From Mobula hypostoma (Eukaryota), in NCBI RefSeq assembly GCF_963921235.1, contig NC_086097.1:47866001-47930000 (forward strand): 64,000 nt of DNA, in the 5' to 3' direction. A program made the position numbers and the translations under genes. The notes beneath the pieces were generated by a model. That model saw nothing but the letters and a program-made list of their open reading frames with translations. It did no database searches and was not told the origin of the DNA. Positions 34,821-63,387 of this stretch are shown one piece after another. How positions within the stretch are numbered: position 1 is the stretch's first letter; each line of letters opens with the position of its first letter.

Positions 34821-37034
34821 AGAGCAACTTCTTCAAACTTGTCTGCAGAAACAGCTTAATTTCTAACTCTAATGTCTCTTTTTTCTCTCCTTTTCAATGT
34901 GGATGGGTTCTGTCACGCCCTTGACCTGCATCTGCACTCATACTGTGGTTCTTTATGGCAATGGTTCCTGCTCCCTGAGATGGCCGAAAGGCTGTTTTAA
35001 AATATCCCATTGGCGTGGAAAGAAGATGAGTGTACCTTCGGTGCACTAAGGCTTTACAGCCCTGTGGACAAGCTGATTCTAGGCTGCTACTGCTGACTGA
35101 AGCTTCACGGGAGAAAACAGAATATCAGGAACAGTGGATCAGCTGTCGGAGGTCACTGTACCCGGTGAACTGCTCTCTGACTCCTCTAACTTTCTCTCGG
35201 TGGGGGGGTGTTTGCTGCTAATTCTCGTGTCAGAGAACTTGAAAAACACGATGCGGCATACTTTAATGTCATAAATCAGCGAGTTTTGTTCTTGTTGGTC
35301 TCCCCTCGCTGTGTGACACCTCTCTACCCCTTTATTATGGAGAGAGAGAGCCTGTGGCACGTCAAAATGGTCGGCTAATGATTAGTTTTTCTGTACTTCA
35401 GATCATGGTCTCTCTTGGGGCCTCTGCGATTGCTTGCTTGGTGGGTACTGGGTGCTGATGCTTTTTGCTGAAACATGAAGGCGAGTGGGAAAGCTGATGC
35501 TTTATTGCAGCTTGCGCTTGGGAGGGGGAGAAGGCAGATTTTGAGGTTCTAACATTTTTACTGTCATTCAATCTTTTGGGTACTCCTGTTTTTGAGAATG
35601 TCTGAGAAGAGAAATGATTTCAGGTTGCATATTGTATACATTCTCTGACCTTAGATGGAACTATTGACCTATTGAAGTATTGAAAATACATTGCCTAATG
35701 TGTAAATACTGACTAATGTATAAAGCATTATCTAAGTTAGCAAACATTTTTCTATGAAAATATGTGCTGGCCATCAAAATCAATTAGTAATTACAAATCT
35801 GTTGCCCAGGAGTTGAACATGCTTTCCTTCTCATGATTCTCTCGTTGGACATCAGGAAAGGTGAATTTCTGAGATTGAGTTCGTGCTTCAGGTGGAGACA
35901 AGAAAATCGGAATACAAGGTGTCGCTGGTCCACTCTGCAATAAGGCAGCCTTTCATATGTGTATCCATTGGTGTCATTTGTTGTATGTGGAGGTCCAAGA
36001 GTGACCTTCTCTATATCCTGTTGGGCCTAACACAGATCAGGTGAAATTGCTTTCTTGAGTGCCCTTTCCCTGTCTGCTGCAACAGACAGGTTCTCCCACT
36101 ATTTTAATTCAACTCCGCTCTTTCACGGCCTCTTCCGCTGCCAAGTTGAAGCCAGGCACAGACAGGAAGAGTAACACCTCATATTCTTAATACATTCATT
36201 ATTCCTCGATAGTTTCTGCATGCTTCATCAGATAAATTAACTATTCTCCAATAGAAACTTTGGTTGCTACACCAACTAAGCTGTTGCAAAAAATCCTACA
36301 TTTTAAGGTAAAAGCATGGATTTCACAAATTGGCACGAACATGTCGAATTTAACGGTTGTATACAGACTAGTGGAGAAAACTCTAACGTACTCATTTACA
36401 TGTTTTCTCACATTAGGTATTCAGTATTCTGAGAGTGATGAATTAGCTATTTTTGGCAATGTAACAGATGTAGCAAATACGAGTTTCACAGTCTTTTGCA
36501 TGATGTAGGGAAACACGGTCTATGTTAAAACAACTAAGGAAGATACAGTAAGTCAATGTGCCGTACGGGCAAGCACTCCAATACCTTGATCAAACTAGAG
36601 ACAGAAGTGAATCCAGTGACAGTGCAGTTTACATAGCATTAATACATTTGCAGCCGGGTGTCACCTCACCATATCCCTGAACACAAGAATTTCCATTTCA
36701 AATGTAATGTCCACTCAGTGGTTACTTAGTTAGGTACACGGGTACACCTGCTTGTGAATGTAAAATCTAATCAGCCAATCATGTGAGAGACCTCAATGCA
36801 TAAAAACATGCAGACATTGCTAAAAGGTTCAGTTGTTGTTAAGACCAAACATCGTTCATGGATGAAGAGTTGAGAGAGTGGATAGATTTGAAAACTAGTG
36901 TGGACGTGGTATAGTTGATTGCAGTTGGAGCAAAGGACTGAGCCTACTGTTGGGAGTTTCCTCTCGGGCAGGAAGTGGGGTAGAGATGGCAGGAAGTGTC
37001 AGAGAAGACTGAAATAGCGATTGGGAAGTAGTAT

Positions 37035-37560
37035 TGGATCGCCTCACGATAGGAAAGATGTGGAAACCATAGAAAGGGTGCAGAGGAGATTTACAAGGAC
37101 ATTGCCTGGATTGGGGAGCATGCCTTATGAGAATAGATTGAGTGAACATGGCCTTTTCTCCTTGGAGCGACGGAGGATGAGAGATAACTTGATATAGGTT
37201 TACAAGATAATGAAAGGTATTGATCGTGTGGATAGTCGGAGGCTTTTGCCCGGGACTGAAATCACTAGAATGAGCGGGCACAGTTTTAAGGTGCTTGGAA
37301 AGAGATACAGAGGAGATGTCAGGGGTAAGTTTTTTATGCAGAGAGTGGTGAGTTCGTGGAACGGGCTGCCGGCGACGGTTGTGCAGGTGGAAACAATAGG
37401 GTCTTTTAAGAGACTCCTGGATGGCTACATGGAGCTTAGAAGAATAGAGATCTATGGGTAAAGCCTAGGTAGTTCTAAGGTAGGGACAAGTTTGGCACAG
37501 CTTTGTGGGCCAAAGGACCTGTATTGTGCTGTAGGTTTTCTATGTCTGTATGTTCTATGC
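37035..37560 (+). mobile_element. CR1 3' fragment (paralogue ~53320-53850)
   Basis: MKGIDRVD..FFMQRVVSSWNGLP; TTCTATG tail. Confidence 0.85.
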
Positions 37561-38188
37561 TCTATAGGAGTTGTATCGAGGAAGGTGAATGGCAAGTTTC
37601 TGGGAAACAGAAAAATAAGGGCTAGTTGAAGATTGTAGTGGCTAATTGTCCAGTGATGAAGGCAGAAGACAGGATTTAAATAAAAGAAGGAAGGAAGAGT
37701 TTAAGAATTTGTTGAGCTTTGAATGTTGTCCAGTTTCTGATAGCAATCCAATTAGGCTAACTAAGGATTTGAAAAACCATTAGGAAATATTGTGGGTGCA
37801 AATCCCTTAAAAGAAGGGGCACTCTTTTTATTTTGTAATGATAGTAAGCAATGTGAGAAAGCTTTGGGGTTAAAAGCTGTGGGAGGAAGGAAAGTAACAG
37901 CAAGAAATTCTATTGAATGACATTGGCTTTGGGGATTCATCTCTGTGGTGCTTCTAGATGTGACCAAGGACCAAGTTAAAAATAATTTGTTTGGGGAAAA
38001 GTTTGCATATGCTATATATTTCAAAGGGTTTCATCATGGAGTCTGAGCAGATAGCTTATTGGTGTTGGTTATACTTGATGGAAAAACAGCTGCTGCATAG
38101 GCTTCATTTAGGTTAGTGAGATGTATTGTTTGGCTCTGTATGCTGCTCCATCAGAGATGTTTCAATGGAAGAAATTTGGTCATTAGCG

Positions 38189-38728
38189 GCTGTGTGTAAG
38201 GGTAAAGGTGAGGGTAGATGTGGGGCTGTGTGTGAGGGTAAAGGTGAGGGTAGATGTGGGGCTGTGTGTGAGGGTAAAGGTGAGGGTAGATGTGGGGCTG
38301 TGTGTGAGGGTAAAGGTGAGGGTAGATGTGGGGCTGTGTGTGAGGGTAAAGGTGAGGGTAGATGTGGGGCTGTGTGTGAGGGTAAAGGTGAGGGTAGATG
38401 TGGGGCTGTGTGTGAGGGTAAAGGTGAGGGTAGATGTGGGGCTGTGTGTGAGGGTAAAGGTGAGGGTAGATGTGGGGCTGTGTGTGAGGGTAAAGGTGAG
38501 GGTAGATGTGGGGCTGTGTGTGAGGGTAAAGGTGAGGGTAGAGGTGGGGCTGTGTGTGAGGGTAAAGGTGAGGGTAGATGTGGGGCTGTGTGTGAGGGTA
38601 AAGGTGAGGGTAGAGGTGGGGCTGTGTGTGAGGGTAAAGGTGAGGGTAGATGTGGGGCTGTGTGTGAGGGTAAAGGTGAGGGTAGATGTGGGGCTGTGTG
38701 TAAGGGTAAAGGTGAGGGTAGATGTGGA
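38189..38728 (+). repeat. 36-bp minisatellite, 15 units
   Basis: Unit GCTGTGTGTGAGGGTAAAGGTGAGGGTAGATGTGGG (AVCEGKGEGRCG). Confidence 0.97.
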
Positions 38729-39134
38729 GGAGAACATGATTATGGCAATTATGTAGAAGGCATTAGTCTAAATTGTAGCAACTGTGGAGAAGAACATAGC
38801 TCTGCTATGCAGGGTGTTGCGAATATAAGAAAGGTGTCAAAGTGTAACGTGTTCAGCTGGAAATGGGCATGTCATATTCAGAGGCTCCGCAGAAAGTACA
38901 CAAGACAATAGGTCTCATTGACACTAATGTCCAGATTATAGATAGTTTATAGACAATGTCTAAAGTGCACACTGTATTACCAAGGATTCTCTGATTGTTG
39001 ATAAAGTGAGGTTTGTCACTTTCGTGACAGATGTGGTAAATTGTTAAACTCAAACTAAGAGAAAAATGAAAGTTATTTTAAAAGCTGTAGAAAAAACATC
39101 TGGAGATAAAAGGCATAACTCTAGAAGTTTTCTT

Positions 39135-39395: not shown

Positions 39396-39713
39396 GTTTT
39401 AAGTTATTACTGGTGAAGCCCCTTCAATTACTCCAAAAGACTGAGGTTGGGTAAAATACTGAAAGGCTTTTATTCGCTGTACAATACGACCTCCATGGTG
39501 AGTGTCTGCCCCCGGACTGAGGGGGAGGGGCAAGGCGAAACACCTTTATACAGGAATCTGTGGGAGGAGCCACAGGGACAGTCAGCAGAGGGGCGTGTCC
39601 AGACAGTTAACCCAGTTACAACATATATATGGTTTACCACATTCACCCCTCCTTTTGTTTTAGAAAAGAGTCCCGCGGGGTGAAGTGACTGACAATATTT
39701 AAAACAAGTATAT

Positions 39714-41267
39714 TTACAGGTGAAGTCTATCAGGCGGTCGAGTCCGTCGCTGTGATCTACGTAGCACCGGTGGTGATTGCATCGGCGACGGCGGTTGTGC
39801 TGGCTCCGGCCTGACTTGAGGTGCCAGCACATTAGGCGTTGGTAATCCCTCGTGCGTGTGTGTCGCGCCCGGTATGGGAGTGTCGTGTGGTATCTGTGTG
39901 GGGCTTGGAGTGCGCGGTGTCTCGTGGGTATATATATCGGTGGTTACGGGGTCAATAGTCACCACGGAGTGTTCAGGGTAGGGTCCCGGTGCTCCTGCGG
40001 GCGCCAGGTCGCGGATGGAGACTGTGTCCTCCCGCCCATCAGATAAAACCACGTAGGCATACTGAGGGTTTGCATGAAGTAAATGAACCCTCTTGACAAT
40101 CGGGGAGTATTTATTGCTCCTCGCATGCTTCCAGAGCAGCACTGGCCCCGGGAACGTCAGCCAAGTTGGTAGGGTCGTCCCTGTGGTCGACTTTCTGGGA
40201 AATGAAAAGAGCCGCTCATGAGGGGTGGCATTGGTGGACGTACATAACAGGGAGTGGATGGAGTGGAGTGCCTCGGGAAGGACCTCCTGCCAGCGGGAGA
40301 CCGGCAGTCCCTTTGACCTGAGGGCTAAGAGTGTGGCTTTCCACACTGTGCCATTCTCCTTCTCTACCTGTCCATTCCCCCGGGGATTATAGCTCGTGGT
40401 CCTACTGGTTGCAATTCCCCTAGTCAGTAGATATTGGCGCAGCTCGTCACTCATAAACGAGGACCCTCCGTCACTGTGGATATAGCATGGGTATCCGAAC
40501 AGAGTGAAGAGCTTGCGCAGGGCTTTTATAACTGACGTAGTAGTGGTGTCGGGGCAGGGGATGGCGAAGGGGAACCGCGAGTACTCGTCAATTACGTTAA
40601 GGAAGTACACATTGCGGTTGGTGGAGGGAAGGGGGCCCTTAACGTCAACACTCAGTCGCTCAAAGGGGCGGGTGGCCTTGATGAGTGGTGCCTTTTCGGG
40701 TGGGTAGAAGTGTGGTTTGCACTCTGCGCAGACTTGGCAGTCCCTGGTCATCATCCTGATCTCCTCAAGGGAGTAAGGCAGGTTCCGGGCTTTCACAAAG
40801 TGGAAAAGCTGGGTGACCCCCGGGTGGCAAAGATGTACATGTAGGGTGTATAACCGGTCAATCTGTGCGCTGGCGCACATTCCCCGGGATAGGGCATCGG
40901 AGGGCTCGTTGAACTTTCCAGGCCTGTACATGATGTCATATTTGTAGGTGGAGAGTTCGATTCTCCACCTCAGAATTTTATCATTTTTAATTTTGCCCCG
41001 CTGTTGGTTACTAAACATGAATGCGACTGAGCGCTGGTCTGTTAGCAGGGTGAACCTTTTGCCAGCAAGATAGTGCGTGCAGTGCCTAATAGCTTCCACT
41101 ATGGCCTGGGCCTCTCTCTCCACTGCGGAGTGCTGAATTTCAGGGCCTTGAAGGGTACGGGAGAAGAACGCCACTGGTCTTCCCACCTGGTTGAGGGTAG
41201 CAGCCAGTGCAAAGTCGGAGGCGTCACTCTCCACTTGGAAGGGAATGGCCTCATCCACCGCATGCAT
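39714..41267 (-). CDS. Gypsy pol fragment: RNase H and integrase (517 aa)
   Basis: VESDASD..LTDQRS; HVHLCHPG..CQVC; SVDVKGP..IHSDGG..GNGQVEKEN; ends RRSQRRTRPPDRL; no chromodomain. Confidence 0.9.
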   Translation of the reverse strand: MHAVDEAIPFQVESDASDFALAATLNQVGRPVAFFSRTLQGPEIQHSAVEREAQAIVEAIRHCTHYLAGKRFTLLTDQRSVAFMFSNQQRGKIKNDKILRWRIELSTYKYDIMYRPGKFNEPSDALSRGMCASAQIDRLYTLHVHLCHPGVTQLFHFVKARNLPYSLEEIRMMTRDCQVCAECKPHFYPPEKAPLIKATRPFERLSVDVKGPLPSTNRNVYFLNVIDEYSRFPFAIPCPDTTTTSVIKALRKLFTLFGYPCYIHSDGGSSFMSDELRQYLLTRGIATSRTTSYNPRGNGQVEKENGTVWKATLLALRSKGLPVSRWQEVLPEALHSIHSLLCTSTNATPHERLFSFPRKSTTGTTLPTWLTFPGPVLLWKHARSNKYSPIVKRVHLLHANPQYAYVVLSDGREDTVSIRDLAPAGAPGPYPEHSVVTIDPVTTDIYTHETPRTPSPTQIPHDTPIPGATHTHEGLPTPNVLAPQVRPEPAQPPSPMQSPPVLRRSQRRTRPPDRLHL

Positions 41268-42109
41268 TGCTGCTTTGGCAATGCCCCTTTTATGCGGTTG
41301 AAGGCCGCGTGGGCCTCGGCAGAGAGGGGGAATGTGGTGGACTTGACCAGGGGGCGGGCCTTGTCTGTGTAGTTAGAGACCCATTGGGAGTAATATGAAA
41401 AGAAGCCCAGGCACCTTTTGAGGGCTCTGAGGGTGTTGGGAAGAGGGAGTTCCAACAGGGGGTGCATATGGTCAGGGTCAGGGCCAATGACTCCATTCTC
41501 CGCGACACACCCAAGGATAGCAAGTCGGGTGGTCCTGAATACACACTTGTCCTTGTTATAGGTGAGATTGAAAGCTTTGGCCACTTGGAGAAATTTTTGT
41601 AGGTTGTTGTTATGATCCTGCCGGTCATGACCGCAGATGGTGATGTTATCCAGATATGGGAACGAGGCCTTCGGTTGGCACTGGTCCACCATCCGGTTCA
41701 TTTCCCTTTGGAAGACAGATACACCATTCGTGACACCGAAGGGGACGCGCTGGAATTGATAAAGCCCGCCGTCCGCCTCGAAGGCAGTGTAAGGGTGGTC
41801 CTCCTGGCGGACGGGGAGCTGATGGTAAGCGGATTTTAGGTCTATGGTCGAGTACACCTTGTAATGTGCTATCTGATTGATCATATCTGCGATGCCGGGT
41901 AGAGGGCACGCATCGAGCTGCGTGAACCTATTGATGGTCTGGCTATAGTCCACGACCATCCTATTCTTCTCCCCGTTCTGAACAACGACCACCTGCGCCC
42001 TCCAAGGACTTGTGCTTGCCTCAATGATCCCTTCCCTGAGCAGCCGCTGCACCTCTGACTTAATGAAGGCTCTGTTCCCCACGCTGTACCTCCTGCTTTT
42101 AGTTGCCAC
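41099..42109 (-). CDS. Gypsy pol fragment: reverse transcriptase
   Basis: SPWRAQVVVV..RMVVDYS..IDLKSAYHQL..PFGVTNG..YLDNI (YLDD mutated). Confidence 0.88.
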   Translation of the reverse strand: MATKSRRYSVGNRAFIKSEVQRLLREGIIEASTSPWRAQVVVVQNGEKNRMVVDYSQTINRFTQLDACPLPGIADMINQIAHYKVYSTIDLKSAYHQLPVRQEDHPYTAFEADGGLYQFQRVPFGVTNGVSVFQREMNRMVDQCQPKASFPYLDNITICGHDRQDHNNNLQKFLQVAKAFNLTYNKDKCVFRTTRLAILGCVAENGVIGPDPDHMHPLLELPLPNTLRALKRCLGFFSYYSQWVSNYTDKARPLVKSTTFPLSAEAHAAFNRIKGALPKQQCMRWMRPFPSKWRVTPPTLHWLLPSTRWEDQWRSSPVPFKALKFSTPQWRERPRP

Positions 42110-45100
42110 AGGTTGACAGTCGGGGGGGTCAGGTTGACGAACAGTGGTGGGAAAGGGATCCTGAGGGTGGAGAGGCCGCGAGTGGCGTCGGTAGTGCGGC
42201 AGTTGGCATGGTGTTGGGTGGGATGTGCGGGTCGGTGTGTGTGTGTGTGGTCAGTAGTGGGGTATGTGACGTATTCCTACAAAACTGGGGATTTAAGACA
42301 GTAATTGGCGGGAGGGGCCCAACATACTCCATTGTCACACTTTTCAGGTGGCTCTGGAAGTCCAACCCCAATAGCACAGGGGCACACAGTTGAGGCATGA
42401 CCAGTAATGTAAAGTCTCGATATTCTGTGCCCTGCACCACAAGTGTCGCTACAAAACCCCCCCCCGGATGTCTGTTGTATGCGACCCGGAAGCCATGGTG
42501 ACCTCTGACTTACCGGCCGTATCATGAGTCCGCAATGCTGCACCATGTCGGGGTGGATAAAACTCTCCATGCTGCCAGTGTCAAACAGGCAGCTTGTCCT
42601 GCGCCCCTCCACCAGGATGTCCATCATTGACCATGTGAGCTGGTGGGGAACGCTTTGGTCGAGGGTCACGGAAGCCAAGGTTGACTCACTGTCTTGGTCC
42701 GGCGTGGTGGGGTGCCCCGTGAGAACCCGTTGGTCGTAGGCAGTGGGAGGTGGCGCCGACCAAGATGGCCACCCCCATCTCTCGCATGTGATGGTGGCGT
42801 GCAGGGAAGATGGCGGCAGGCAAGATGGCGACCCCCATGTTTCGCACGCGGCGCTGCTCGATCCCGCTCGCGGTTTGGACTTACAGGCCTTGGTGAAGTG
42901 GCCCTTCTTTCCGCAGCTGGAGCAGGTAGCTTCTCGGGCCGGGCAGCGTTTCCGGGGGTGCTTCTGGAGTCCGCAGAAGTAGCACTTTGCGGACTCGCGA
43001 CTGGCAGCAGCCGAGGTCGATTCGCTGGTGGGTTACGGGGTCTGCGGCGCCCACGAGGCCATCGGGGGATCGCGTGCCTGGAGAGCCTCGGAGTTATGCA
43101 GAGCGGCCTTCAGAGTGTCGGCCAGTTTGATCGCCGAACTTAAGGTAAGATCGGCTTTTTCCAAAAGCTGCTGGCGCCCATACACTGACCTGGTCCCCGT
43201 GACGAAGGCGTCCCTCTCTAGGAGCTCTGCATGCTGCGCCGCCGTCAGCTCCTGGCAATTGCAGGCTCGCACGAGTGTCTGTAGGGCCTGGACAAACTCA
43301 GCACTCGATTCCCCGGGCCGTTGTTGCCGTGTCGCTAAGCGGTGCCGAGCATAGACGCTGTTTATCGGCTGCAGGTATTGTCTTTTGAGGGTGCTCATCG
43401 CGCCCTCTTAGCTCAGCTGGTCTCTGATCAGCGAATAGACCCGTGGACTGACCCTGGAGAGCTGAACTCTGCAGTTCGCTACGGGGTCGGTCGCTTTAAT
43501 CTCCTCTAGGTACGCTTTGAAGCAGGCCAGCCGTAGTTCAAAAGCGTTTCCAGCTTCAGGCGTTTGCGGATCGATGTCTATCTTGTCGGCCTCAGAGCGT
43601 GTTCCATGCTTTAAAATTTACAGCGAATAAAGTTGAAGCACCTTTAATTACTCCAAAAGACTGAAGTTGGGTAAAATACTGAAAGGCTTTTATTCGCTGT
43701 ACAATACGACCTCCATGCTGAGTGTCTGCCCCCGGACTGAGGGGGAGGGACAAGGCGAAATCACCTTTATTCAGGAATCTGTGAGAGGAGCCACAGGGGC
43801 AGTCAGCAGAGGGGCGTGTCCAGACAGTTAACCCCATTACGACATATATATGGTTTACCACAACTGGTACCTTACAAGAAGTAGTAAATAATATTCAGAC
43901 TTCAAAGGAGAGTTGTTAATTTTTTTTCTTATCTTACAATGGAATGCCAGAAAGCCTGTTTGCAAATGGTCCACAGATTAAGAAATTTATTGAAGATTTA
44001 CCTAATAAACCTGTTATATGTGTACAGGAAGCCTGGTTGAAATCTTGTCTAAGTTTCAAGGTACAAGGTTATGTTGATATAAGATGTGATCAGAAAATGG
44101 GTCATGGAGGAGGAGGGGCAGCAAAGTTGGGATAAGGAAAAGACAGGATGAGAACTCAGCTGGTAGAATGGTATAAAAGGAGAGAAGTTGTACATTACAT
44201 ATTGGACATACTAGGTTGAATAATTCCCGGTTCAGAGTTAACATGCATGATACTGGCATGTGTAGGGAGTGCACTTGTCAAGAAATGGTGGAGCATATCT
44301 TGTTTGAATGCAGTTGCTATGAGATGATAAGGAAACATCTCATCACTCAATTGAGATATTTGGGACAAAGTTTAACATGGAAAGTTCATTGGAATATCAC
44401 TGCCATCATAATGTATGTAAGTGTGTATTTGCCTTTCAGAAAAGTATTTGACGTTTTGATATTAACTAGGTTTTTGGGGGAGTGGAATTTACTGGGTATA
44501 CTTCCCTTCTCTTTGCTCCACACTCCAACTCAGTAGGTGACTGTAATAGCCAACTGTCAAGAAACATTACAAGAAGAAGAAGACCAAACATTAGAAAGGG
44601 GAAGAAATGTGATCTAAATGACTTTGACCAGGGAATGATTGTTGGTGCCAAATGGGGTGGGTTGAGTATCTCAGAAACTGATGAGCTCTTGGGATTTTCA
44701 CACACAACATTCTGTAGATCTTACAGAGAATGGTGTGAAAAACAAAAAAAATACATTCAGTGAACGGCAGTTCTGTGGGCAAAAATGCCTTGTTAATGAG
44801 CAGAAATCAGAGGAGAATGGTTAGACTGACGGAAAGCTGGCAGTAACTTTGATAACTACACTGTAGCACAGTGGTGTACAGAAGAGCATCACTGAATGCA
44901 AAACAGGTTGTACCTTTGAAGTGAATGGACTGCAGCAGCAGAAGACCACATAAACACAAAGTCAGTGGCTGCTTTATTAGGTACCACCTCATTTCTACTG
45001 TGTATATATTGGCTAGGTTTCAGTTTCTTGGCAATTCTAGATACATGATTATTTGGAAGCACGTAGGCTATGTGCTGATGGATAATGAAAATTAAATTGC

Positions 45101-45319
45101 ACAATGTATGGTGTAATACAAAAATAAGATTACTGTCATGTAAAACGTAGTCAAAGTTAACACATACTTTTCTTGGAAATAATTTGTGACAATAAACATC
45201 AGTTAGTCATTACAAATCTGCTGAGCAGGAAGAGTTGAGCATGTTTTCCCTTTCATGTACTTTCATGACTGAGTGGAAGATCTTCTAGTTGATCATCAGG
45301 AATAGTGAATATCTTGAGA

Positions 45320-46230
45320 CAGAATCCTACCACCAAACACATCTTTACCTCCTACCCCTTACTCTCCACTTTCCGCAGAGATTGCCCACTCTGTGATTCT
45401 CTTGTTTATTCATCTTTCCCTATTAATCTCCCTCCTGGCATATTTCCCTGCAAGCAACAGAAATGCTACACTTTCCCATTTAACTCCTCCCTTACGTCTA
45501 CTCAGGCCTGAGAGCAGTCTTCCAAGTGAGGAACACGTTACCTGTGAATCTGTTGAGGACGGCTATTGTATCCGGTGCTCCTGAAGTGGCCTGCTCTACA
45601 TTGGTGCGACCTGACATAAATTGGGGGGAAACCACTTTGTCAAGCACCTTGGCACCATCTGCCAAAAGTGGAATTTCCTACTGACCAACCATTTAAGTTC
45701 CTATCCCCATTCCTTTTCCAACAAGTCAGTCCATGGCATCCTCTTGGTTGGTCCATGCCATGATGAGGCCATTCTCAGGCTTGAGGAGCAACACCTCATG
45801 TTCCGTCTAAATAGCCTCCAACCTGATGGCAGGTGCATTGATTTTGCCTTATGGTAAAAAACAAATCCCTCCCCCTTCTCTCTTCTATTCCACTCTATAG
45901 CCTCATACTTGTTCTCCTCACCTGCCTATCAGCCCCCCTTCTTCGCTTTCTCTTGTAAGCCACTCTTTTCTCCTATCAGATATTTTCTTCCCCATCACTT
46001 TACCTTTCTCACCCACCCAGCTAACCTGTCACCACCTAGCTAGTCCTCTTTCCCCATCTCTACCTTTTTATTCTGGTGTCTTCTCCTTTCCTTTCCAGTT
46101 TTGAAGAAGGGTCTTGGCCCAAAATGTCAACTATACTCATTTCCATAGATGCTGCCTGACCTGCTGAGTTTTTCCAGCATCTTGCGTGTGTTTCTTTGGA
46201 CTTCCAGCATCTGCAGATTTTCTCTTCTTT
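45320..46230 (+). mobile_element. Old Penelope remnant (paralogue ~56780-57690; more decayed copies at ~35875-36190 and ~52160-52475)
   Basis: PTTKHIF..PPGIFPCKQQKCYT..RLEEQHLMFRLNSLQPDG, then the 3' tail. Confidence 0.85.
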
Positions 46231-46234
46231 GTTT

Positions 46235-47383
46235 CTTCTCAAGATGGATCTGTTTATGTGCACCATGCCCTGATCAAAAACAACTTTCAGAGTACCTTTA
46301 GAAGAAGAATTATAGAAATGCATGAAACTGGAAAAAGCTACAAAAGCATTTCTCAAGACCTGATTGTTCATCAGTCCACAGTAAGAGAAATTGTTTACAA
46401 ATAGAGGAAACTCAGTACTGTTGCTACTTTTCTAAGGAGTGGGTGTCCTGCAAAGATCACACCAAGAGCACAAGGTGCAATGCATTATAAGAAAAACAAG
46501 AATGCTCTTCATGGAAGGACATCATGGAGGAAGCCACTGCTCTCCAAAAAAAAAATATTGCTGCACCTCTTAAGCTTGCAAAGGACAATCTGGATGTTTT
46601 ACAACACTTCTGGGACAATGTTCTGTGGACAGGTGAGACAAAAGTTGAACATTTTGGCAGAGGTGCACATGTTTGTGTTTGGAGGAAAAAGGGCACTGCA
46701 CACCAACACCAAAATCTCATCCCAACTGTGAAGAATGCTTGAAGGAGCGTCATGGTTTGGAGCTGCTTTGCTGCCTCCTTGAAGGAACACTTAATTCAAA
46801 GCTGTATCAAGATACTTTACAGGAGAATATTAGAGTAGCAGTCTGTCACCTGAATCTTGATAGAATTTTTATGATGCAACAAGTCAATAATCTGAAAAAC
46901 AAGAGTAGATCAACAACAGAGTTGTTCAAAAAGGAGAAAATTTGTTTTTAGAAATGGTTGAGTTGAAGTCCAAACCCTAATCCTATAGAAATGTTGTGGA
47001 AGGACCTGAAGCCAGCAGTTCACACAAGGAAATCCACCCACAACCCAGTTATAGCAGTTTTGTAAGGAGGAAGCCTAAAATTCCTCCTAGCTGATGTGCA
47101 AGACTGATCAACAGTTCCTGGAAACATCTGGTTGAAGTTATTGCTGTACAAGGGAATCACACCAGTTACTGAAAGCAAAGGTTCACATACTTTTCCAACA
47201 AATACATGTTATATTGGATATTTTTCTCAATAAAGAAGCAAGTATTATGGATTATGTTTTATTTATTTTCTTGGATTATCTTTATCTAGCTTTAGAAGTT
47301 AAATGAATATCTGATATTTTAGGTCATATTTATCCAGAAATAGAGAAAATTCTACAGGGTTCACTAACTTTCTAGCACCACTG
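46235..47383 (+). mobile_element. Tc1 transposon, 5'-truncated and decayed (paralogue ~57700-58838)
   Basis: HETGKSYKSISQDL, FWDNVLWTGETKVEHFG..NLIPTVK; ends ..TAGCACCACTG followed by TA. Confidence 0.88.
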
Positions 47384-51345: not shown

Positions 51346-54300
51346 CCTGTGGACAAGCTGATTCTAGGCTGCTGCTGCTGACTGAAGCTTCACGGGAGAA
51401 AACAGAATATCAGGAACAGTGGATCAGCTGTCGGAGGTCACTGTACCCGGTGAACTGCTCTCTGACTCCTCTAACTTTCTCTCGGTGGGGGGTGTTTGCT
51501 GCCAATTCTCGTGTCAGAGAACTCGAGAAACACGATGCGGCAGACCTTAATGTCGTAAATCAGCAAGTTTTGTTCTTGTTGGTCTCCCCTCGCTGTGTGA
51601 CACCTCTCTAACCCTTTATTATGGAGAGAGAGAGCCTGCGGCACGTCAAAATGGTCGGCTAATGATTAGTTTTTCTGTACTTCAGAACATGGTCTCTCTT
51701 GGGGCCTCTGCGATTGCTTGCTTGGTGGGTACTGGGTGCTGATGCTTTTTGCTGAAACATGAAGGCGAGTGGGAAAGCTGATGCTTTATTGCAGCTTGCG
51801 CTTGGGAGGGGGAGAAGGCAGATTTTGAGGTTCTAACATTTTTACTGTCATTCAATCTTTTGGGTACTCCTGTTTTTGAGAATGTCTGAGAAGAGAAATG
51901 ATTTCAGGTTGCATATTGTATACATTCTCTGACCTTAGATGGAACTATTGACCTATTGAAGTATTGAAAATACATTGCCTAATGTGTAAATACTGACTAA
52001 TGTATAAAGCATTATCTAAGTTAGCAAACATTTTTCTATGAAAATATGTGCTGGCCATCAAAATCAATTAGTAATTACAAATCTGTTGCCCAGGAGTTGA
52101 ACATGCTTTCCTTCTCATGATTCTCTCGTTGGACATCAGGAAAGGTGAATTTCTGAGATTGAGTTCGTGCTTCAGGTGGAGACAAGAAAATCGGAATACA
52201 AGGTGTCGCTGGTCCACTCTGCAATAAGGCAGCCTTTCATATGTGTATCCATTGGTGTCATTTGTTGTATGTGGAGGTCCAAGAGTGACCTTCTCTATAT
52301 CCTGTTGGGCCTAACACAGATCAGGTGAAATTGCTTTCTTGAGTGCCCTTTCCCTGTCTGCTGCAACAGACAGGTTCTCCCACTATTTTAATTCAACTCC
52401 GCTCTTTCACGGCCTCTTCCGCTGCCAAGTTGAAGCCAGGCACAGACAGGAAGAGTAACACCTCATATTCTTAATACATTCATTATTCCTCGATAGTTTC
52501 TGCATGCTTCATCAGATAAATTAACTATTCTCCAATAGAAACTTTGGTTGCTACACCAACTAAGCTGTTGCAAAAAATCCTACATTTTAAGGTAAAAGCA
52601 TGGATTTCACAAATTGGCACGAACATGTCGAATTTAACGGTTGTATACAGACTAGTGGAGAAAACTCTAACGTACTCATTTACATGTTTTCTCACATTAG
52701 GTATTCAGTATTCTGAGAGTGATGAATTAGCTATTTTTGGCAATGTAACAGATGTAGCAAATACGAGTTTCACAGTCTTTTGCATGATGTAGGGAAACAC
52801 GGTCTATGTTAAAACAACTAAGGAAGATACAGTAAGTCAATGTGCCGTACGGGCAAGCACTCCAATACCTTGATCAAACTAGAGACAGAAGTGAATCCAG
52901 TGACAGTGCAGTTTACATAGCATTAATACATTTGCAGCCGGGTGTCACCTCACCATATCCCTGAACACAAGAATTTCCATTTCAAATGTAATGTCCACTC
53001 AGTGGTTACTTAGTTAGGTACACGGGTACACCTGCTTGTGAATGTAAAATCTAATCAGCCAATCATGTGAGAGACCTCAATGCATAAAAACATGCAGACA
53101 TTGCTAAAAGGTTCAGTTGTTGTTAAGACCAAACATCGTTCATGGATGAAGAGTTGAGAGAGTGGATAGATTTGAAAACTAGTGTGGACGTGGTATAGTT
53201 GATTGCAGTTGGAGCAAAGGACTGAGCCTACTGTTGGGAGTTTCCTCTCGGGCAGGAAGTGGGGTAGAGATGGCAGGAAGTGTCAGAGAAGACTGAAATA
53301 GCGATTGGGAAGTAGTATTGGATCGCCTCACGATAGGAAAGATGTGGAAACCATAGAAAGGGTGCAGAGGAGATTTACAAGGACATTGCCTGGATTGGGG
53401 AGCATGCCTTATGAGAATAGATTGAGTGAACATGGCCTTTTCTCCTTGGAGCGACGGAGGATGAGAGATAACTTGATATAGGTTTACAAGATAATGAAAG
53501 GTATTGATCGTGTGGATAGTCGGAGGCTTTTGCCCGGGACTGAAATCACTAGAATGAGCGGGCACAGTTTTAAGGTGCTTGGAAAGAGATACAGAGGAGA
53601 TGTCAGGGGTAAGTTTTTTTTATGCAGAGAGTGGTGAGTTCGTGGAACGGGCTGCCGGCGACGGTTGTGCAGGTGGAAACAATAGGGTCTTTTAAGAGAC
53701 TCCTAGATGGCTACATGGAGCTTAGAAAAATAGAGGGCTATAGGTAAAGCCTAGGTAGTTCTAAGGTAGGAACATGTTCGGCACAGCTTTGTGGGCCAAA
53801 GGGCCTGTATTGTGCTGTAGGTTTTCTATGTCTCTAGTTTTATGTTCTATAGGAGGTGTATTGAGGAAGGTGAATGGCAAGTTTCTGGGAAACAGAAAAA
53901 TAAGGGCAAATTGAGGATTGTAGTGGCTTATTGTCCAGTGATGAAGGCAGAAGACAGGATTTAAATAAAAGAAGGAAGGAAGAGTTTAAGCTTTTGTTGA
54001 GTTTTGAATGTTGTCCAGTTTCTGATATCAATCCAATTAGGGCTAAGTAAGGATTTGAAAAACCATTAGGAAATATTGTGGGCGCAAATCCCTGAAGAGA
54101 AGGGACACTCTTTTTATTTTGTAATGATAGTAAGCAATGTGAGAAAGCTTTAGGGTTAAAAGCTGTGGGAGGAAGGAAAGTAACAGAAAGAAATTCTATT
54201 GAATGACATTGGCTTTGGGGATTCATCTCTGTGGTGCTTCTAGATGTGACCAAGGACCAAGTTAAAAATAATTTGTTTGGGGAAAAGTTTGCATATGCTA

Positions 54301-54474
54301 TATATTTCAAAGGGTTTCATCGTGGAGTCTGAGCAGGTAGCTTATTGGTGTTGGTTATACTTTATGGAAAAACAGCTGCTGCATAGGCTTCATTTAGGTT
54401 AGTGAGATGTATTGTTTGGCTCTGTATGCTGCTCCATCAGAGATGTTTCAATGGAAGAAATTTGGTCATTAGCG

Positions 54475-54654
54475 GCTGTGTGTGAGGGTAAAGGTGAGGG
54501 TAGATGTGGGGCTGTATGTGAGGGTAAAGGTGAGGGTAGATGTGGGGCTGTGTGTGAGGGTAAAGGTGAGGGTAGATGTGGGGCTGTGTGTGAGGGTAAA
54601 GGTGAAGGTAGATGTGGGGCTGTGTGTGAGGGTAAAGGTGAGGGTAGATGTGGA
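54475..54654 (+). repeat. 36-bp minisatellite, 5 units
   Basis: Same unit as 38189-38728. Confidence 0.95.
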
Positions 54655-57600
54655 GGAGAACATGATTATGGCAATTATGTAGAAGGCATTAGTCTAAATT
54701 GTAGCAACTGTGGAGAAGAACATAGCTCTGCTATGCAGGGTGTTGCGAATATAAGAAAGGTGTCAAAGTGTAACGTGTTCAACTGGAAATGGGCATGTCA
54801 TATTCAGAGGCTCCGCAGAAAGTACACAAGACAATAGGTCTCATTGACACTAATGTCCAGATTATAGATAGTTTATAGACAATGTCTAAAGTGCACACTG
54901 TATTACCAAGGATTCTCTGATTGTTGATAAAGTGAGGTTTGTCACTTTCGTGACAGATGTGGTAAATTGTTAAGCTCAAACTAAGAGAAAAATGAAAGTT
55001 ATTTTAAAAGCTGTAGAAAAAACATCTGGAGATAAAAGGCATAACTCTAGACGTTTTCTTTTGAGATGCAGAGTGGGATAAGACTTCCTGGCCCTTCAAG
55101 GCATGTCACTCAGCAATGCCCCAATTCAATCATAGCCTAATAATGGGACAATTTACAATTACTGATGAACTTACCAACTGGTACGTCTTTGGACTGTGGG
55201 AGGAAACTGGAGGAAACCCACGAGATCACAGGGAGGCTGTACGAACTCCTTATAGGCAGCAGCAGGAATTGAACCCTGGTCGCCTGTGCACTAACCACTA
55301 TACTACCATGCCAATGATTTTAAGTTATTACTGGTGCCTTACAAGGAGTAGTAAATAATATTCAGACTTCAAAGGAGAGTTGTTAATATTTTTCTCATCT
55401 TACAATGGAATGCCAGAAAGCGTGTTTGCAAATGGTCCACAGTTTAAGAAATTTATTGAAGATTTAGCTAATAAACCTGTTATATGTGTACAGGAAGCCT
55501 GGTTGAAATCTTGTCTAAGTTTCAAGATACAAGGTTATGTTGATATAAGATGTGATCCGAAAATGGGTCATGGAGGAGGAGGGGCAGCAAAGTTGGGATA
55601 AGGAAAAGACAGGATGAGAACTCAGCTGGTAGAATGGTATAAAAGGAGAGAAGTTGTACATTACATATTGGACATACTAGGTTGAATAATTCCCTGTTCA
55701 GAGTTAATATGCATGATACTGGCATGTGTAGGGAGTGCACTTGTCAAGAAATGGTGGAGCATATATTGTTTGAATGCAGTTGCTATGAGATGCTAAGGAA
55801 ACATCTCATCACTCAATTGAGATACTTGGAACAATGTTTCAGATGGAAAGTTCATTGGGATATCACTGCCATTATAGCGTATATAAGTGTGTATTTGCCT
55901 TTCAGAAAAGTATTTGACTTTTTGATATTAACTAGGTTTTTGGGGGAGTGGAATTTACTGGGTATACTTCCCTTCTCTTTGCTCCACACTCCAACTCAGT
56001 AGGTGACTGTAATAGCCAACTGCCAAGAAACATTACAAGAAGAAGAAGACCAAACATTAGAAAGGGGAAGAAATGTGATCTAAATGACTTTGACCATGGA
56101 ATGATTGTTGGTGCCAAATGGGGTGGGTTGAGTATCTCAGAAACTGATGAGCTTTTGAGATTTTCACACACGACATTCTGTAGATCTTACAGAGAATGGT
56201 GTGAAAAAAAAACATTCAGTGAACGGCAGTTCTGTGGGCAAAAATGCCTTGTTAATGAGCAGAAATCAGAGGAGAATGGTTAGACTGACAGGAAGCTGGC
56301 AGTAACTTTGATAACTACTCTGTAGCACAGTGGTGTACAGAAGAGCATCACTGAATGCAAAACAGGTTGTACCTTTGAAGTGAATGGACTACAGCAGCAG
56401 AAGACCACATAAACACAAAGTCAGTGGCTGCTTTATTAGGTACCACCTCATTTCTACTGTGTATATATTGGCTAGGTTTCAGTTTCTTGGCAATTCTAGA
56501 TACATGATTATTTGGAAGCACGTAGGCTATGTGCTGATGGATAATGAAAATTAAATTGCACAATGTATGGTGTAATACAAAAAATAAGATTACTGTCATG
56601 TAAAACGTAGTCAAAGTTAACACATACTTTTCTTGGAAATAATTTGTGACAATAAACATCAGTTAGTCATTACAAATCTGCTGAGCAGGAAGAGTTGAGC
56701 ATGTTTTCCCTTTCATGTACTTTCATGACTGAGTGGAAGATCTTCTAGTTGATCATCAGGAATAGTGAATATCTTGAGACAGAATCCTACCACCAAACAC
56801 ATCTTTACCTCCTACCCCTTACTCTCCACTTTCCGCAGAGATTGCCCACTCTGTGATTCTCTTGTTTATTTGTCTTTCTCCATTAATCTCCCTCCTGGCA
56901 TATTTCCCTGCAAGCAACAGAAATGCTACACTTTCCCATTTAACTCCTCCCTTACGTCTACTCAGGCCTGAGAGCAGTCTTCCAAGTGAGGAACACGTTA
57001 CCTGTGAATCTATTGAGGACGGCTATTGTATCCGGTGCTCCTGAAGTGGCCTGCTCTACATTGGTGCGACCTGACATAAATTGGGGGGGAAACCACTTTG
57101 TCAAGCACCTTGGCACCATCTGACAAAAGTGGAATTTCCTGCTGACCAACCATTTAAGTTCCTATCCCCATTCCTTTTCCAACAAGTCGGTCCATGGCAT
57201 CCTCTTGGTTGGTCCATGCCATGATGAGGCCATTCTCAGGCTTGAGGAGCATCACCTCATGTTCCGTCTAAATAGCCTCCAACCTGATGGCAGGTGCATT
57301 GATTTTGCCTTATGGTAAAAAACAAATCCCTCCCCCTTCTCTCTTCTATTCCACTCTATAGCCTCATACTTGTTCTCCTCACCTGCCTATCAGCCCCCCT
57401 TCTTCGCTTTCTCCTGTAAGCCACTCTTTTCTCCTATCAGATATTTTCTTCCCCATCACTTTACCTTTCTCACCCACCCAGCTTACCTGTCACCACCTAG
57501 CTAGTCCTCTTTCCCCATCTCTACCTTTTTATTCTGGTGTCTTCTCCCTTCCTTTCCAGTTCTGAAGAAGGATCTTGGCCCAAAATGTCAACTATACTCA

Positions 57601-59509
57601 TTTCCATAGATGCTGCCTGACCTGCTGAGTTTTTCCAGCATCTTGTGTGTGTTGCTTTGGACTTTCAGCATCTGCAGATTTTCTCTTCTTTGTTTCTTCT
57701 CAAGATGGATCTGTTTATGTGCACCATGCACTGATCAAAAAAGAGGACCTTTGGAAGAAGAATTGTAGAGATGCATGAAGCTGGAAAAGGTTCCAAAAAC
57801 ATTTCTCAAGACCTGATTGTTCATCAGTCCACAGTAAGAGAAATTGTTTAAAATGGAGGAAACTCAGTACTGTTGCTACTTTCCCTAGGAGTGAGCGTCC
57901 TACAAAGATCACACCAAGAGCATAAGGTGCAATGCATTACAAGGAAAACACTGAACAAGAATGGAGTTCATGGAAGGACATCATGGAGGAAACCACTGCT
58001 CTCCAAAAAAAAACATTGTTGCACCTCTTAAGTTTGCAAAGGACAACCTGGATGTTTTACAACACTTCTGGGACAATGTTTTGTGGAGAGGTGAGACAAA
58101 AGTTGAACAATTTGGCAGAAGTGCACATTTTTATGTTTGGAGGGAAAAGAGTACAGCACACCAACACCAAAACCTCATCCCAACTGTGAAGAATGCTTGA
58201 AGGAGCATCATGGTTTGGAGCTGCTTTGCTGCCTCATTGAAGGAACACTTAATTCAAAGCTGTATCAGGATATTTTACAGGAGAACATTAGGGTAGCAGT
58301 CTGTCACCTGAATTGTAGTAGAAGTTGTATAATGCAACAAGTCAATAATTTGAAAGACAAGAGTAGATCAGCAACAGAATTGTTCAAAAAGAAGAAAATT
58401 TGTGTTTAGAAATGACTGAGTCAAAGTCCTAATCCTAATCCTATAGCAATGTTGTGGATGACCTGAAGCAAGGAAATCCACCAACAACCCAGTTATAGCA
58501 GTTTTGTAAGGAGGAATGGTCAAAAATTCCTCCTAGCTGATGTGCAAGACTAATCAGCATTTACCAGAAACTTCTGGTTGAAGTTATTGCTGTACAAGCG
58601 AATCACACCAGTCACTGAAAGCAAAGGTTCACATAATTTTTCCAACAAATACGTGTAATATTGGATAATTTTTCTCAATAAATAAAGAAACAAGTATTAT
58701 GTATTGTGTTTTATTTATTTAATTGGATTATCTTTATCTAGTTTTAGGACTTACAGGAAGATCCGATCATATTTTAGGTCATATTTACTCAGAAATAGAG
58801 AAGATTCTGCAGGGTTCACTAACTTTCTAGCACCACTGTATGTTTATGCTTTGCATGACCTTGCTGTTTTCTTGCAATGTACCTTCATTTTACAGTTCTT
58901 AATTTAGTTGTGGAGCAAATTGTTCAGTGTGGCATTTAGAGAATTCAACATCCATTTCTGCCAAAAAGTATTGTGCAATTCCAATATAAATCTGCATTGA
59001 CATTGATGACCCATCTTTCATGGCATAGTGTACCAAAAAATAACTTGAACTTGAGCTTTGTCTGGACAAGTGAAGTGCAAGCTTGTGAAAAGTAATGGAG
59101 CCTTTGCAGTATTTGTCTAATAAATTTCAAGTGATCCAAGATAGTGGAGTAACCACTTTCTCCTAACAACTGACTTCTTGTCCAGAACCTCATTATTAAC
59201 ATAAATCTGAAAGGAATATTCTCTAATACAATAATTGTATTCTTGACACGAGTTACTATACTTGATGCATGTATTGGAAAGCTCATTCTGCAATTCACCA
59301 AATGGAGTTAAACATAAATACAGATCACAAATCAATGGACATCTTGTGTTCATTAGTTGTTGAACAAGCCATGCTCAAAACAATTATTGTGTTCGATTGA
59401 TCATTTCCTAAAGCTTACTTCAAAACAATAAAGCGGTAAATGTCCAAACCAGTGTACACAATGACACAGCCTTGCTTTGTGTCTCTATCTGATCTGATAC
59501 TTCATTCAA

Positions 59510-60030: not shown

Positions 60031-60357
60031 TCAACTCAATTCAATCTTAATATTAACCTTCATTTTCTTACGGAATTTTCTGAATAAGGAGAATGCATTT
60101 TGTTTCAAGTTCAATTTCAGTTTATTGTCATTCAACTGTATACATGCATACCGCCAGACAAACAATGTTCCTCCAGACCAAGATGCACGACATGGTGCAT
60201 ATAACCCACACGCATAACACATAAAGTAATATTACCACAAATAATCAGGTGCATTTACAACACAAGTTAAAAAGAAACCAGTATAAAGCTGCTGGCAACA
60301 CACATAAAAGTTGCTGGTGAACGCAGCAGGCCAGGCAGCATCTCTAGGAAGAGGTGC

Positions 60358-60393
60358 AGTCGACGTTTCAGGCGGAGACCCTTCGTCAGGACT
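60358..60393 (-). ncRNA. Minimal type I hammerhead ribozyme motif
   Basis: AGTC-CTGACGA-AGG gtctccg CCT-GAAA-CGTC-GACT on the minus strand. Confidence 0.8.
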
Positions 60394-62044
60394 AACTGAA
60401 GGAAGAGTTAGTAAGAGATTTGAAAGTGGGAAGGTGAGGGGGAGATCCAAAATGATAGGAGAAGACAGGAGGGGGAGGGATGGAGCCAAGAGCTGGACAG
60501 GTGATAAGCAAAAGGGATACAAAGGGATCATGGGACAGGAGGTCTGGGAAGAAAGACAAGGGGGGGGGGGACCCAGAGGACAGGCAAGGGGTATATTCAG
60601 AGGGACAGAGAGAGAAAAAGGAGAGTGAGAGAAAGAATGTGTGTATAAAAATAAGTAACAGATGGGGTACGAGGGGGAGGTGGGGCATTAGCGGAAGTTA
60701 GAGAAGTCGATGTTCATGCCATCAGGTTGGAGGCTACCCAGACGGAATATAAGGTGTTGTTCCTCCAACCTGAGTGTGGTTTCATCTTTACAGTAGAGGA
60801 GGCCGTGGATAGACATGTCAGAATGGGAATGGGATGTGGAATTAAAATGTGTGGCCACTGGGAGATCCTGCTTTCTCTGGCGGACAGAGCATAGGTGTTC
60901 AGCAAAGCGGTCTCCCAGTCTGCGTCGGGTCTCGCCAATATATAAAAGGCCACATCAGGAGCACCGGATGCAGTATATCACCCCAGCTGACTCACAGGTG
61001 AAGTGTTGCCTCACCTGGAAGGACTGTTTGGGGCCCTGAATGGTGGTAAGGGAGGAAGTGTAAGGGCATGTGTAGCACTTGTTCCGCTTACACGGATAAG
61101 TGCCAGGAGGGAGATCAGTGGGGAGGGATGGGGGGGACGAATGGACAAGGGAATTGCGTAGGGAGCGATCCCTGCAGAATGCAGAGAGATGGGGGCAGGG
61201 AAAGATGTGCTTAGTGGTGGGATCCCGTTGGAGGTGGCGGAAGTTACGAAGAATAATATGTTGGACCCGGAGGCTGGTGGGGTGGTAGGTGAGGACCAGG
61301 GCAAACCTATTCCTAGTGGGGTGGCGGGAGGATGGAGTGAGAGCAGATGTACGTGAAATGGGGGAGATGCGTTTAAGAGCAGAGTAGATAGTGGAGGAAG
61401 GGAAGCCCCTTTCTTTAAAAAAGGAAGACATCTCCTTCGTCCTAGAATGAAAAGCCTCATCCTGAGAGCAGATGCGGTGGAGACGGAGGAATTGCGAGAA
61501 GGGGATGGCGTTTTTGCAAGAGACAGGGTGAGAAGAGGAATAGTCCAGATAGCTGTGAGAGTCAGTAGGCTTATAGTAGACATCAGTGGATAAGCTGTCT
61601 CCAGAGACAGAGACAGGAAGATCTAGAAAGGGGAGGGAGGTGTCGGAAATGGACCAGGTAAACTTAAGGGCAGGGTGAAAGTTGGAGGCAAAGTTAATAA
61701 AGTCAACGAGCTCTGCATGCATGCAGGAAGCAGCGCCAATGCAGTCGTCGATGTAGCGAAGGAAAAGTGGGGACAGATACCAGAATAGGCATGGAACATA
61801 GATTGTTCCACAAAGCCAACAAAAAGGCAGGCATAGCTAGGACCCATACGGGTGCCCATAGCTACACCTTTAGTTTGGAGGAAGTGGGAGGAGCCAAAGG
61901 AGAAGTTATTAAGAGTAAGGACTAATTCCACTAGACGGAGCAGAGTGGTGGTAGAGGGGAACTGATTAGGTCTGGAATCCAAAAAAAGCGTAGAGCTTTG
62001 GCTCCTTACTGTTAATAATTTCTCCTCATTCTAGGAGGAGGGAG

Positions 62045-62788
62045 ATGTCTTCCTTTTTTAAAGAAAGGGGCTTCCCTTCCTCCACTATCAACTCTGCTCT
62101 TAAACGCACCTCCCCCATTTCACGTACATCTGCTCTCACTCCATCCTCCCGCCACCCCACTTGGAATAGGGTTCCCCTGGTCCTCACCTACCACCCCACC
62201 AGCCTCCAGGTCCAACATATTATTCTCCGTATCTTCCGCCACCTCCAACGGGATCCCACCACTAAGCACATCTTTCCCTCCCGCCCTCTCTCTGCATTCC
62301 GCAGGGATCGCTCCCTATGCAACTCCCTTGTCCATTCGTCCCCCCCATCCCTCCCCACTGATCTCCCTCCTGGCACTTATCCGTGTAAGCGGAACAAGTG
62401 CTACGCATGCCCTTACACTTCCTCCCTTACCACCATTCAGGGCCCCAAACAGTCCTTCCAGGTGAGGCAACACTTCACCTGTGAGTCAGCTGGGGTGATA
62501 TACTGTGTCCGGTGCTCCCGATGTGGCCTTTTATATATTGGCGAGACCCAACGCAGACTGGGAGACCGCTTTGCTGAACACCTACACTCTGTCCGCCAGA
62601 GAAAGCAGGATCTCTCAGTGGCCACACATTTTAATTCCACATCCCATTCCCATTCTGACATGTCTATCCACGGCCTCCTCTACTGTAAAGATGAAACCAC
62701 ACTCAGGTTGGAGGAACAACACCTTATATTCCGTCTGGGTAGCCTCCAACCTGATGGCATGAACATCGACTTCTCTAACTTCCGCTAA
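62045..62788 (+). CDS. Penelope ORF C-terminal part (thumb/linker and GIY-YIG endonuclease), open to its stop, 5'-truncated
   Basis: 247-aa ORF with GIY-YIG motifs, ending QPDGMNIDFSNFR*. Confidence 0.85.
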   Translation: MSSFFKERGFPSSTINSALKRTSPISRTSALTPSSRHPTWNRVPLVLTYHPTSLQVQHIILRIFRHLQRDPTTKHIFPSRPLSAFRRDRSLCNSLVHSSPPSLPTDLPPGTYPCKRNKCYACPYTSSLTTIQGPKQSFQVRQHFTCESAGVIYCVRCSRCGLLYIGETQRRLGDRFAEHLHSVRQRKQDLSVATHFNSTSHSHSDMSIHGLLYCKDETTLRLEEQHLIFRLGSLQPDGMNIDFSNFR

Positions 62789-63080
62789 TGCCCCACCTCC
62801 CCCTCGTACCCCATCTGTTACTTATTTTTATACACACATTCTTTCTCTCACTCTCCTTTTTCTCTCTCTGTCCCTCTGAATATACCCCTTGCCTGTCCTC
62901 TGGGTCCCCCCCCCTTGTCTTTCTTCCCAGACCTCCTGTCCCATGATCCCTTTGTATCCCTTTTGCTTATCACCTGTCCAGCTCTTGGCTCCATCCCTCC
63001 CCCTCCTGTCTCCTCCTATCATTTTGGATCTCGCCCTCCCCCTCCAACTTTCAAATCCCTTACTCATTCTTCCTTCAGTT

Positions 63081-63116
63081 AGTCCTGACGAAGGGTCTCG
63101 GCCTGAAACGTCAACT
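63081..63116 (+). ncRNA. Minimal type I hammerhead ribozyme motif (one stem I mismatch; identical copy at 13524-13559)
   Basis: AGTC-CTGACGA-AGG gtctcgg CCT-GAAA-CGTC-AACT. Confidence 0.72.
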
Positions 63117-63387
63117 GCATCTCTTCCTAGAGATGCTGCCTGGCCTGCTGCGTTCACCAGCAACTTTTATGTGTGTTGCTTGAATTTCCAGCATCTGCAG
63201 AATTCCTGTTGTTTGTGTTTTTAAAGCTGCTGGCACTCATACAAAATGATACGTGGACGGTAGCAAGGAGTTCAGCAGTCTCACAGCCTGGGGGAAGCTG
63301 TTTCCCACCCTAACAGTTTTTGTCATAATTCTACAGTACCTCCTGCCTGATGGCAGGCAGTCAAAGAGATTGTTGGACAGACGGGAG

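Follow-up and report, generated by a model that had tools for sequence, protein, structure and literature searches.

A compact animal Gypsy clade without a chromodomain that probably primes reverse transcription with its own LTR RNA

A Ty3/gypsy element in the genome of Mobula hypostoma raises the question of how minus-strand DNA synthesis begins when the site behind the 5′ LTR carries no tRNA-type TGG and instead pairs with the LTR itself. The window analyzed here, a 64,000-nucleotide stretch of contig NC_086097.1, contains a whole but decayed copy of 4,449 bp on the minus strand (39414–43862). Its 5′ LTR (43634–43862; 229 bp, TG...CA ends) and 3′ LTR (39414–39641) show 12 differences across 229 columns, and the copy is flanked by the target-site duplication CCAGT, upstream at 43863–43867 and downstream at 39409–39413. 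Between the LTRs, the same strand holds a broken stretch with gag (ATG at 43607, double CCHC knuckle) and the start of the protease (42280–43607), an open stretch with reverse transcriptase (RT) (41099–42250; RVT_1, E 1e-23), an open stretch with RNase H and the integrase core whose C terminus has neither chromodomain nor GPY/F (39714–41372), and a polypurine tract 4 nt 5′ of the 3′ LTR (39646–39656). LTR ends, target-site duplication, polypurine tract and the domain order gag–PR–RT–RH–IN all fit a Ty3/gypsy LTR retrotransposon, which the element is. The first-pass annotation had described it as full-length, with a 5-bp duplication and 229-bp LTRs. Its extent, its two LTRs and its duplication bear this out, but the 3′ LTR measures 228 bp and the coding region is interrupted by frameshifts and stops.

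The surroundings of the element are themselves repetitive. A decayed chromovirus-type Gypsy element lies on the minus strand at 1–4100; its RT piece matches chromodomain-bearing fish and amphibian elements at ~70%, and it served to find controls. The parts 35200–38850 and 43900–46850 form a segmental duplication with 51490–58300 (93–99% identity; offsets ~16.3 and 11.5 kb), and because the offset changes between the two parts, the second copy is suggested to lack the element and to hold the empty site. A 36-nt unit forms a tandem array at 38150–38740, a short version of which lies near 54440–54810 inside a duplicated segment. Finally, 60295–63180 is occupied by a presumably Penelope-like element whose inverted arms are long (889 nt, 97% alike).

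The putative primer-binding site (PBS) of the window copy (minus strand, 43619–43631) is the exact 13-nt complement of 43689–43701 (LTR 162–174), a putative self-primer segment on the same strand whose 3′ end is an AATAAA hexamer, the likely poly(A) signal (minus strand, 43689–43694), 55 nt 5′ of the LTR end. When the LTR was base-shuffled, 13-bp pairing arose in 2 of 20,000 cases; dinucleotide shuffling gave it in none of 2,000. The fold of 43615–43701 reaches −25.6 kcal/mol (z = −5.5; equally stable in 0 of 200 shuffles), with a predicted inner stem-loop (minus strand, 43639–43680) closing the primer/PBS hairpin. There is no TGG in the first 20 nt past the 5′ LTR, the earliest being that at the gag ATG, 26 nt on. 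Exact match, shuffles and fold thus agree with the initial proposal of an LTR-complementary PBS region without a tRNA-type TGG, and the hexamer does lie inside the paired stem. The bulged extension of the stem that had also been proposed is missing from the minimum-energy fold, in which another inner stem forms; the shape of the inner stem is not conserved between families.

The same layout recurs across the M. hypostoma genome. An LTR search gave 2,376 first-look candidates, of which 40 were scored and 30 fetched, a sample biased toward the window copy. Full 14/14 pairing was present in 10 of the 30 copies and at least 13/14 pairing, counting G–U, in 26; in 28, a one-base gap separated the LTR-terminal CA from the paired site at maximal pairing. 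Exact-pattern counts over the genome returned 520 junctions whose next base extends the pairing versus 44 of the window type, so that the family numbers at least 564 exact junctions, none with a tRNA site. Since most junctions continue the pairing, which reaches ~16 bp in the seven fetched copies whose next base extends it, the 13 bp of the window copy is a shortened version of the family's pairing. The self-primer segment in most genome copies corresponds to about LTR 160–175 (43688–43703 in the window). The base after the site was also considered as a reverse-transcribed cap and rejected, as it is the majority state and LTR-templated. Some genome copies retain single open frames of ~1,290 codons. 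A tree of 27 of the 30 copies is star-shaped with end branches near 0.066, a shape that we read as an old burst and that is uninformative on recurrence. Only one family seems to be present in this genome: Gag pieces of three other elasmobranch families, used as queries, led to many shared loci, and identity was flat among them.

More distant relatives were obtained from a genome-contig scan, which yielded nine related loci on eukaryotic contigs inside bacterial bins. The 5′ junction was readable at six (L033, L034, L035, L036, L038 and L039) and not at L037, L040 and L041. The six loci represent four families (L033, L034, L035/L036/L038 and L039), which together with the window make up the five families compared here. 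RT identity to the window is 59% for L033, 65% for L034 and 51–59% for L035/L036/L038, the RT of L039 being too broken for a score. For L033 and L034, which lie on contigs with a single LTR, the LTR ends were deduced from the polypurine tract and from the TG and CA. Several of the source bins (G001–G004; L035–L081) are made up mostly of host DNA of eukaryotic origin, in which intact Gypsy elements are abundant.

In L033, L034, L036/L038 and L039, the LTR-terminal CA is followed by one base and then by a perfect complement of 14, 13, 14 and 14 nt, respectively, reached in 0, 1, 0 and 0 of 2,000 shuffles. The paired LTR segment in these four families consists of 6–8 nt plus the poly(A) hexamer. 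The decayed L035 copy, from the same family as L036, keeps 10 bp (5 of 2,000 shuffles). Among the five families the site occurs in four clearly distinct versions, and in every case it fits the LTR of the same family. In a cross test of the 8 nt 5′ of the hexamer, each LTR formed 6–8 contiguous pairs with its own site and 0–5 with those of other families. Covariation extends into the hexamer in L033, where ATTAAA in the LTR is met by TTTAAT in the site. The distance from hexamer to LTR end varies from 23 to 55 nt across families while the one-base register is constant, and TGG after the 5′ LTR is absent in all five. Loss of complementarity among relatives had been named as a check on the pairing; the five testable core families all keep it, with different letters. 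The available text of PMC6317226 recognizes a self-priming site by a complement of at least 10 nt to the element's own LTR starting 0–5 nt past the LTR, and the five families have 13–14 nt at offset 1–2. Two further regularities were noted at the element ends. Just past the hexamer, where the duplex ends, the LTR continues with G, mostly GCC, in four of five families (listed for L033, L036, L039, L048 and the window), possibly a mark of the cut site. At the junction of polypurine tract and 3′ LTR, all five families carry GAA or similar ahead of TG, a counterpart to the short spacer at the opposite end.

Thirteen further in-clade or near-clade stretches (L042–L054) were inspected, 10 of which have no 5′ LTR junction. 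Two decayed, more distant families (L047/L049 and L048) show no clear pairing layout. The first is a long-branch sister family (L047:898–1260, L049:438–800) with neither TGG nor a clear self-complement and with junctions that look deleted; L047 has 5 bp of pairing only, a value reached in 1,514 of 2,000 shuffles. In L048 (LTRs 74% alike, RT 39%), the expected place has only a partial match, and 9 bp of pairing, reached in 59 of 2,000 shuffles, involve a different part of the LTR. As outgroup controls, 19 other Gypsy loci were taken from the same bins, and an LTR pair accompanied by a purine tract was identified at 16. TGG followed the LTR in 15 of these 16, the exception being L066, where a second repeat pair has TGG; self-complementarity was at most 8 nt in all 16. 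A metagenome scan with one RT returned two short contigs with no LTRs, and two scans of viral contigs returned no related loci.

The self-complementary families were then placed among Gypsy elements. The chromodomain (PF00385) is found neither in the window ORF nor in any of 120 relatives and is listed in the chromodomain-bearing control set; GPY/F is present in 0 of 120 relatives versus 13 of 15 chromodomain-bearing controls, and the double CCHC knuckle in 84 of 120 relatives versus 0 of 15 controls. In RT trees, the window, the self-complementary families and their homologues form one clade on a long branch (SH-aLRT 99–100), separate from TGG elements and from chromodomain-bearing vertebrate elements (15 and 7 in the two trees). 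Both were quick trees with vertebrate chromoviruses as the only chromoviruses (no fungal or plant ones) and no named references; the first leaves out L032 and L039, whose RT is too short, and the second retains 39 of 80 rows after long, decayed and redundant rows were dropped. Forcing the clade together with chromoviruses gave p-AU 0.148, so that a sister position is not rejected. The suggestion of a different, non-chromodomain Gypsy lineage is thus supported by domain content and by the separate long branch, while a place as sister to chromoviruses stays compatible with the data. An origin of self-priming independent of the Tf1 group is likely on these trees, and no firmer than that because the chromovirus grouping is unrejected. 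Members of the clade share LTRs of 118–229 bp, single ORFs of ~1,150–1,300 amino acids and a double-knuckle Gag. The nearest named proteins come from rays and sharks (69–88%), followed by marine metagenomes, cnidarians and Trichuris (55–65%), and homologues also occur in Cydia moths. The clade therefore ranges over rays, sharks, cnidarians, a nematode and moths, known in these named hosts from proteins, the DNA of the window host apart.

Across the five families, then, an LTR segment of 13–16 nt ending on the hexamer pairs with a site one base past the 5′ LTR. We propose, by analogy with Tf1, that this compact, single-ORF, non-chromovirus clade of animal Gypsy elements uses its own RNA as the primer for minus-strand DNA synthesis, and we put the probability of this reading at about 0.75. 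The RNA would fold back, laying the LTR segment onto the site behind the 5′ LTR; cleavage just past the last base of the hexamer (RNase H is the cleaving enzyme in Tf1) would leave a free 3′-OH; this end would prime a short strong-stop DNA of ~24–56 nt, which would jump to the RNA 3′ end through the stretch between hexamer and poly(A) site. Self-priming from the LTR, raised as a candidate by the first-pass annotation, gains from the constant register, from covariation in five families and from the TGG sites of 15 of 16 outgroups. The fixed one-base register in particular favors it, as a primer must end 1–2 nt from the LTR end and a masking hairpin need not.

Where the transcript starts bears on how long the primer would be. 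If plus-strand synthesis copies the primer, the LTR would rewrite the site in every cycle, and perfect pairing with a sharp far boundary at the RNA start would follow; that pattern favors a start at the paired segment. A candidate core promoter lies at 43735–43771 on the minus strand, comprising two motif matches, a TATA-like and an initiator-like one. The TATA-like site (LTR 92–97) reads TATAAA in the 3′ LTR and 10 of 30 copies and AATAAA in the window 5′ LTR and 13 of 30, and the initiator-like site TCAGTC (LTR 123–128) is present in 26 of 30. The pair sits ~35 nt upstream of the paired segment, and none of the five families has a TATA box 30 nt 5′ of that segment. In this family the pair points to a start at about that distance upstream, in keeping with the original caveat that TATAAA in the 3′ LTR lies further upstream than a start at the paired segment would predict. 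The sequencing runs examined, all of them assembled contigs, showed neither a transcript start nor an end. A start at or beside the first paired base is most likely and takes about two thirds of the probability given to self-priming; a longer primer from an upstream start takes about one third.

The explanation that best survives beside self-priming is that the hairpin serves solely to conceal the 5′ poly(A) signal, with reverse transcription started by another primer, a host RNA or a protein. The duplex ends on the hexamer and covers all of it in five families, the hexamer change in L033 is matched in its site, and, in the window's family, the TATA/initiator pair would place the transcript start 35 nt upstream. 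We nevertheless consider masking alone unlikely. It has no need for a 3′ arm one base past the LTR-terminal CA, which is a primer's place, nor for a register that stays fixed while the hexamer drifts between 23 and 55 nt from the LTR end, and it leaves the element without a primer site. Only the 5′ LTR is followed by the pairing partner, so that the 5′ poly(A) signal would be hidden and the 3′ one free, and the duplex probably does mask the 5′ signal as well. Priming and masking are more plausibly two functions of a single structure than competing explanations.

In a less probable variant, the primer is not the 5′ fold-back but the segment's 3′ copy, or else short transcripts that ended prematurely and act in trans. 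The 3′ LTR carries the segment too, which enables the 3′ end of the RNA to pair with the site, and sequence cannot separate the two copies. However, the local fold-back is very stable (z −5.5) and should form first during transcription, and a 3′-OH would become available only after loss of the poly(A) tail. Priming by a half-tRNA, with an incidental LTR match, is very improbable: such priming exists in some copia lineages, according to the available text of PMC6317226, but a tRNA would have to change in step with four clearly different sites in five families, each fitting its own LTR. No tRNA genes were found within the 64-kb window. A chance complement or a one-off duplication in the window copy, although the AT-rich hexamer supplies 6 of the 13 pairs, is refuted by the shuffles, the 30 copies and the recurrence with different letters in four other families.

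A broader reading joins these elements: a pan-animal Gypsy clade, from cnidarians to rays, self-priming independently of Tf1, with a primer that ends on the element's own poly(A) hexamer, one duplex serving as primer and as 5′ poly(A) silencer, and the primer cut from inside the RNA if the start lies ~35 nt upstream. We advance this combination tentatively. A primer cut from the RNA interior, given that upstream start, would be a mode undescribed for Tf1. Self-priming is proven only in Tf1-type chromoviruses and predicted in a few plant lineages. If true here, abandoning tRNA priming would be a repeated and lasting strategy, found in several animal phyla and in hundreds of copies in a vertebrate genome; such elements would escape control by tRNA fragments, 'PBS-less' Gypsies would gain an annotation rule, and priming would be tied, testably, to poly(A)-site choice. 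The LTR/PBS pairing is real, and self-priming is a known mechanism of which a variant is proposed here. The openly accessible papers that we searched describe neither self-priming in an animal Gypsy clade outside the chromoviruses nor a primer that ends on a poly(A) signal, and the available texts of PMC3670739, PMC2774666 and bioRxiv 10.1101/2023.10.26.564294 contain nothing on either point. A prior mention is quite possible.

Among known animal elements, two groups invite comparison. Elements with the TGGCGACGAG site, which we take to be of Mag type, have weak Gag similarity to the window clade (26–29%), RT ~29–31% identical to it, a TGG tRNA site and no self-complement. Cigr-1 of Ciona intestinalis, described by Simmen and Bird in 2000, reportedly has LTRs of ~245 bp, one ORF of ~1,210 codons and a Gag like that of echinoderm SURL/Tgr1. 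By that description it resembles the window clade in LTR length, ORF length and Gag; the window clade may be the Cigr-1 clade, which we offer as a lead only. Cigr-1 motifs had no match in one paper's supplements or in the wider collection searched. The Cigr clade also occurs in molluscs and annelids, and the main texts on it, as available, do not mention its primer site (PMC6238403, PMC8556966).

The mechanism has closer counterparts outside animals. As in the window clade, a complement of at least 10 nt between LTR and PBS predicts self-priming in plant Tcn1 chromoviruses and in TAR (Houba/Osr-1) copia elements; these belong to other lineages and hosts, and poly(A)-signal overlap is absent from their description in the available text (PMC6317226). 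In Tf1, the PBS is paired with the first 11 nt of the RNA, and cleavage by RNase H falls between nucleotides 11 and 12 (PMC7175516), and self-priming has likewise been proposed for Tj1 of S. japonicus (PMC4600332); as far as the accessible portions of these sources go, it is known in Tf1/sushi and predicted in plant Tcn1 and TAR (PMC6317226, PMC3601003, PMC5006619). The window clade resembles Tf1/Tf2 of Schizosaccharomyces pombe, Tj1 and the Tf1/sushi group at large in having no tRNA site and a PBS that pairs with an LTR segment shortly upstream. Unlike Tf1/sushi, it has neither chromodomain nor GPY/F, and its RT is 25–32% identical to those of 15 vertebrate chromoviruses, no closer than to tRNA-primed Gypsies (23–36%). 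It differs further in its double CCHC knuckle and in a putative primer of 13–16 nt that ends on the poly(A) hexamer.
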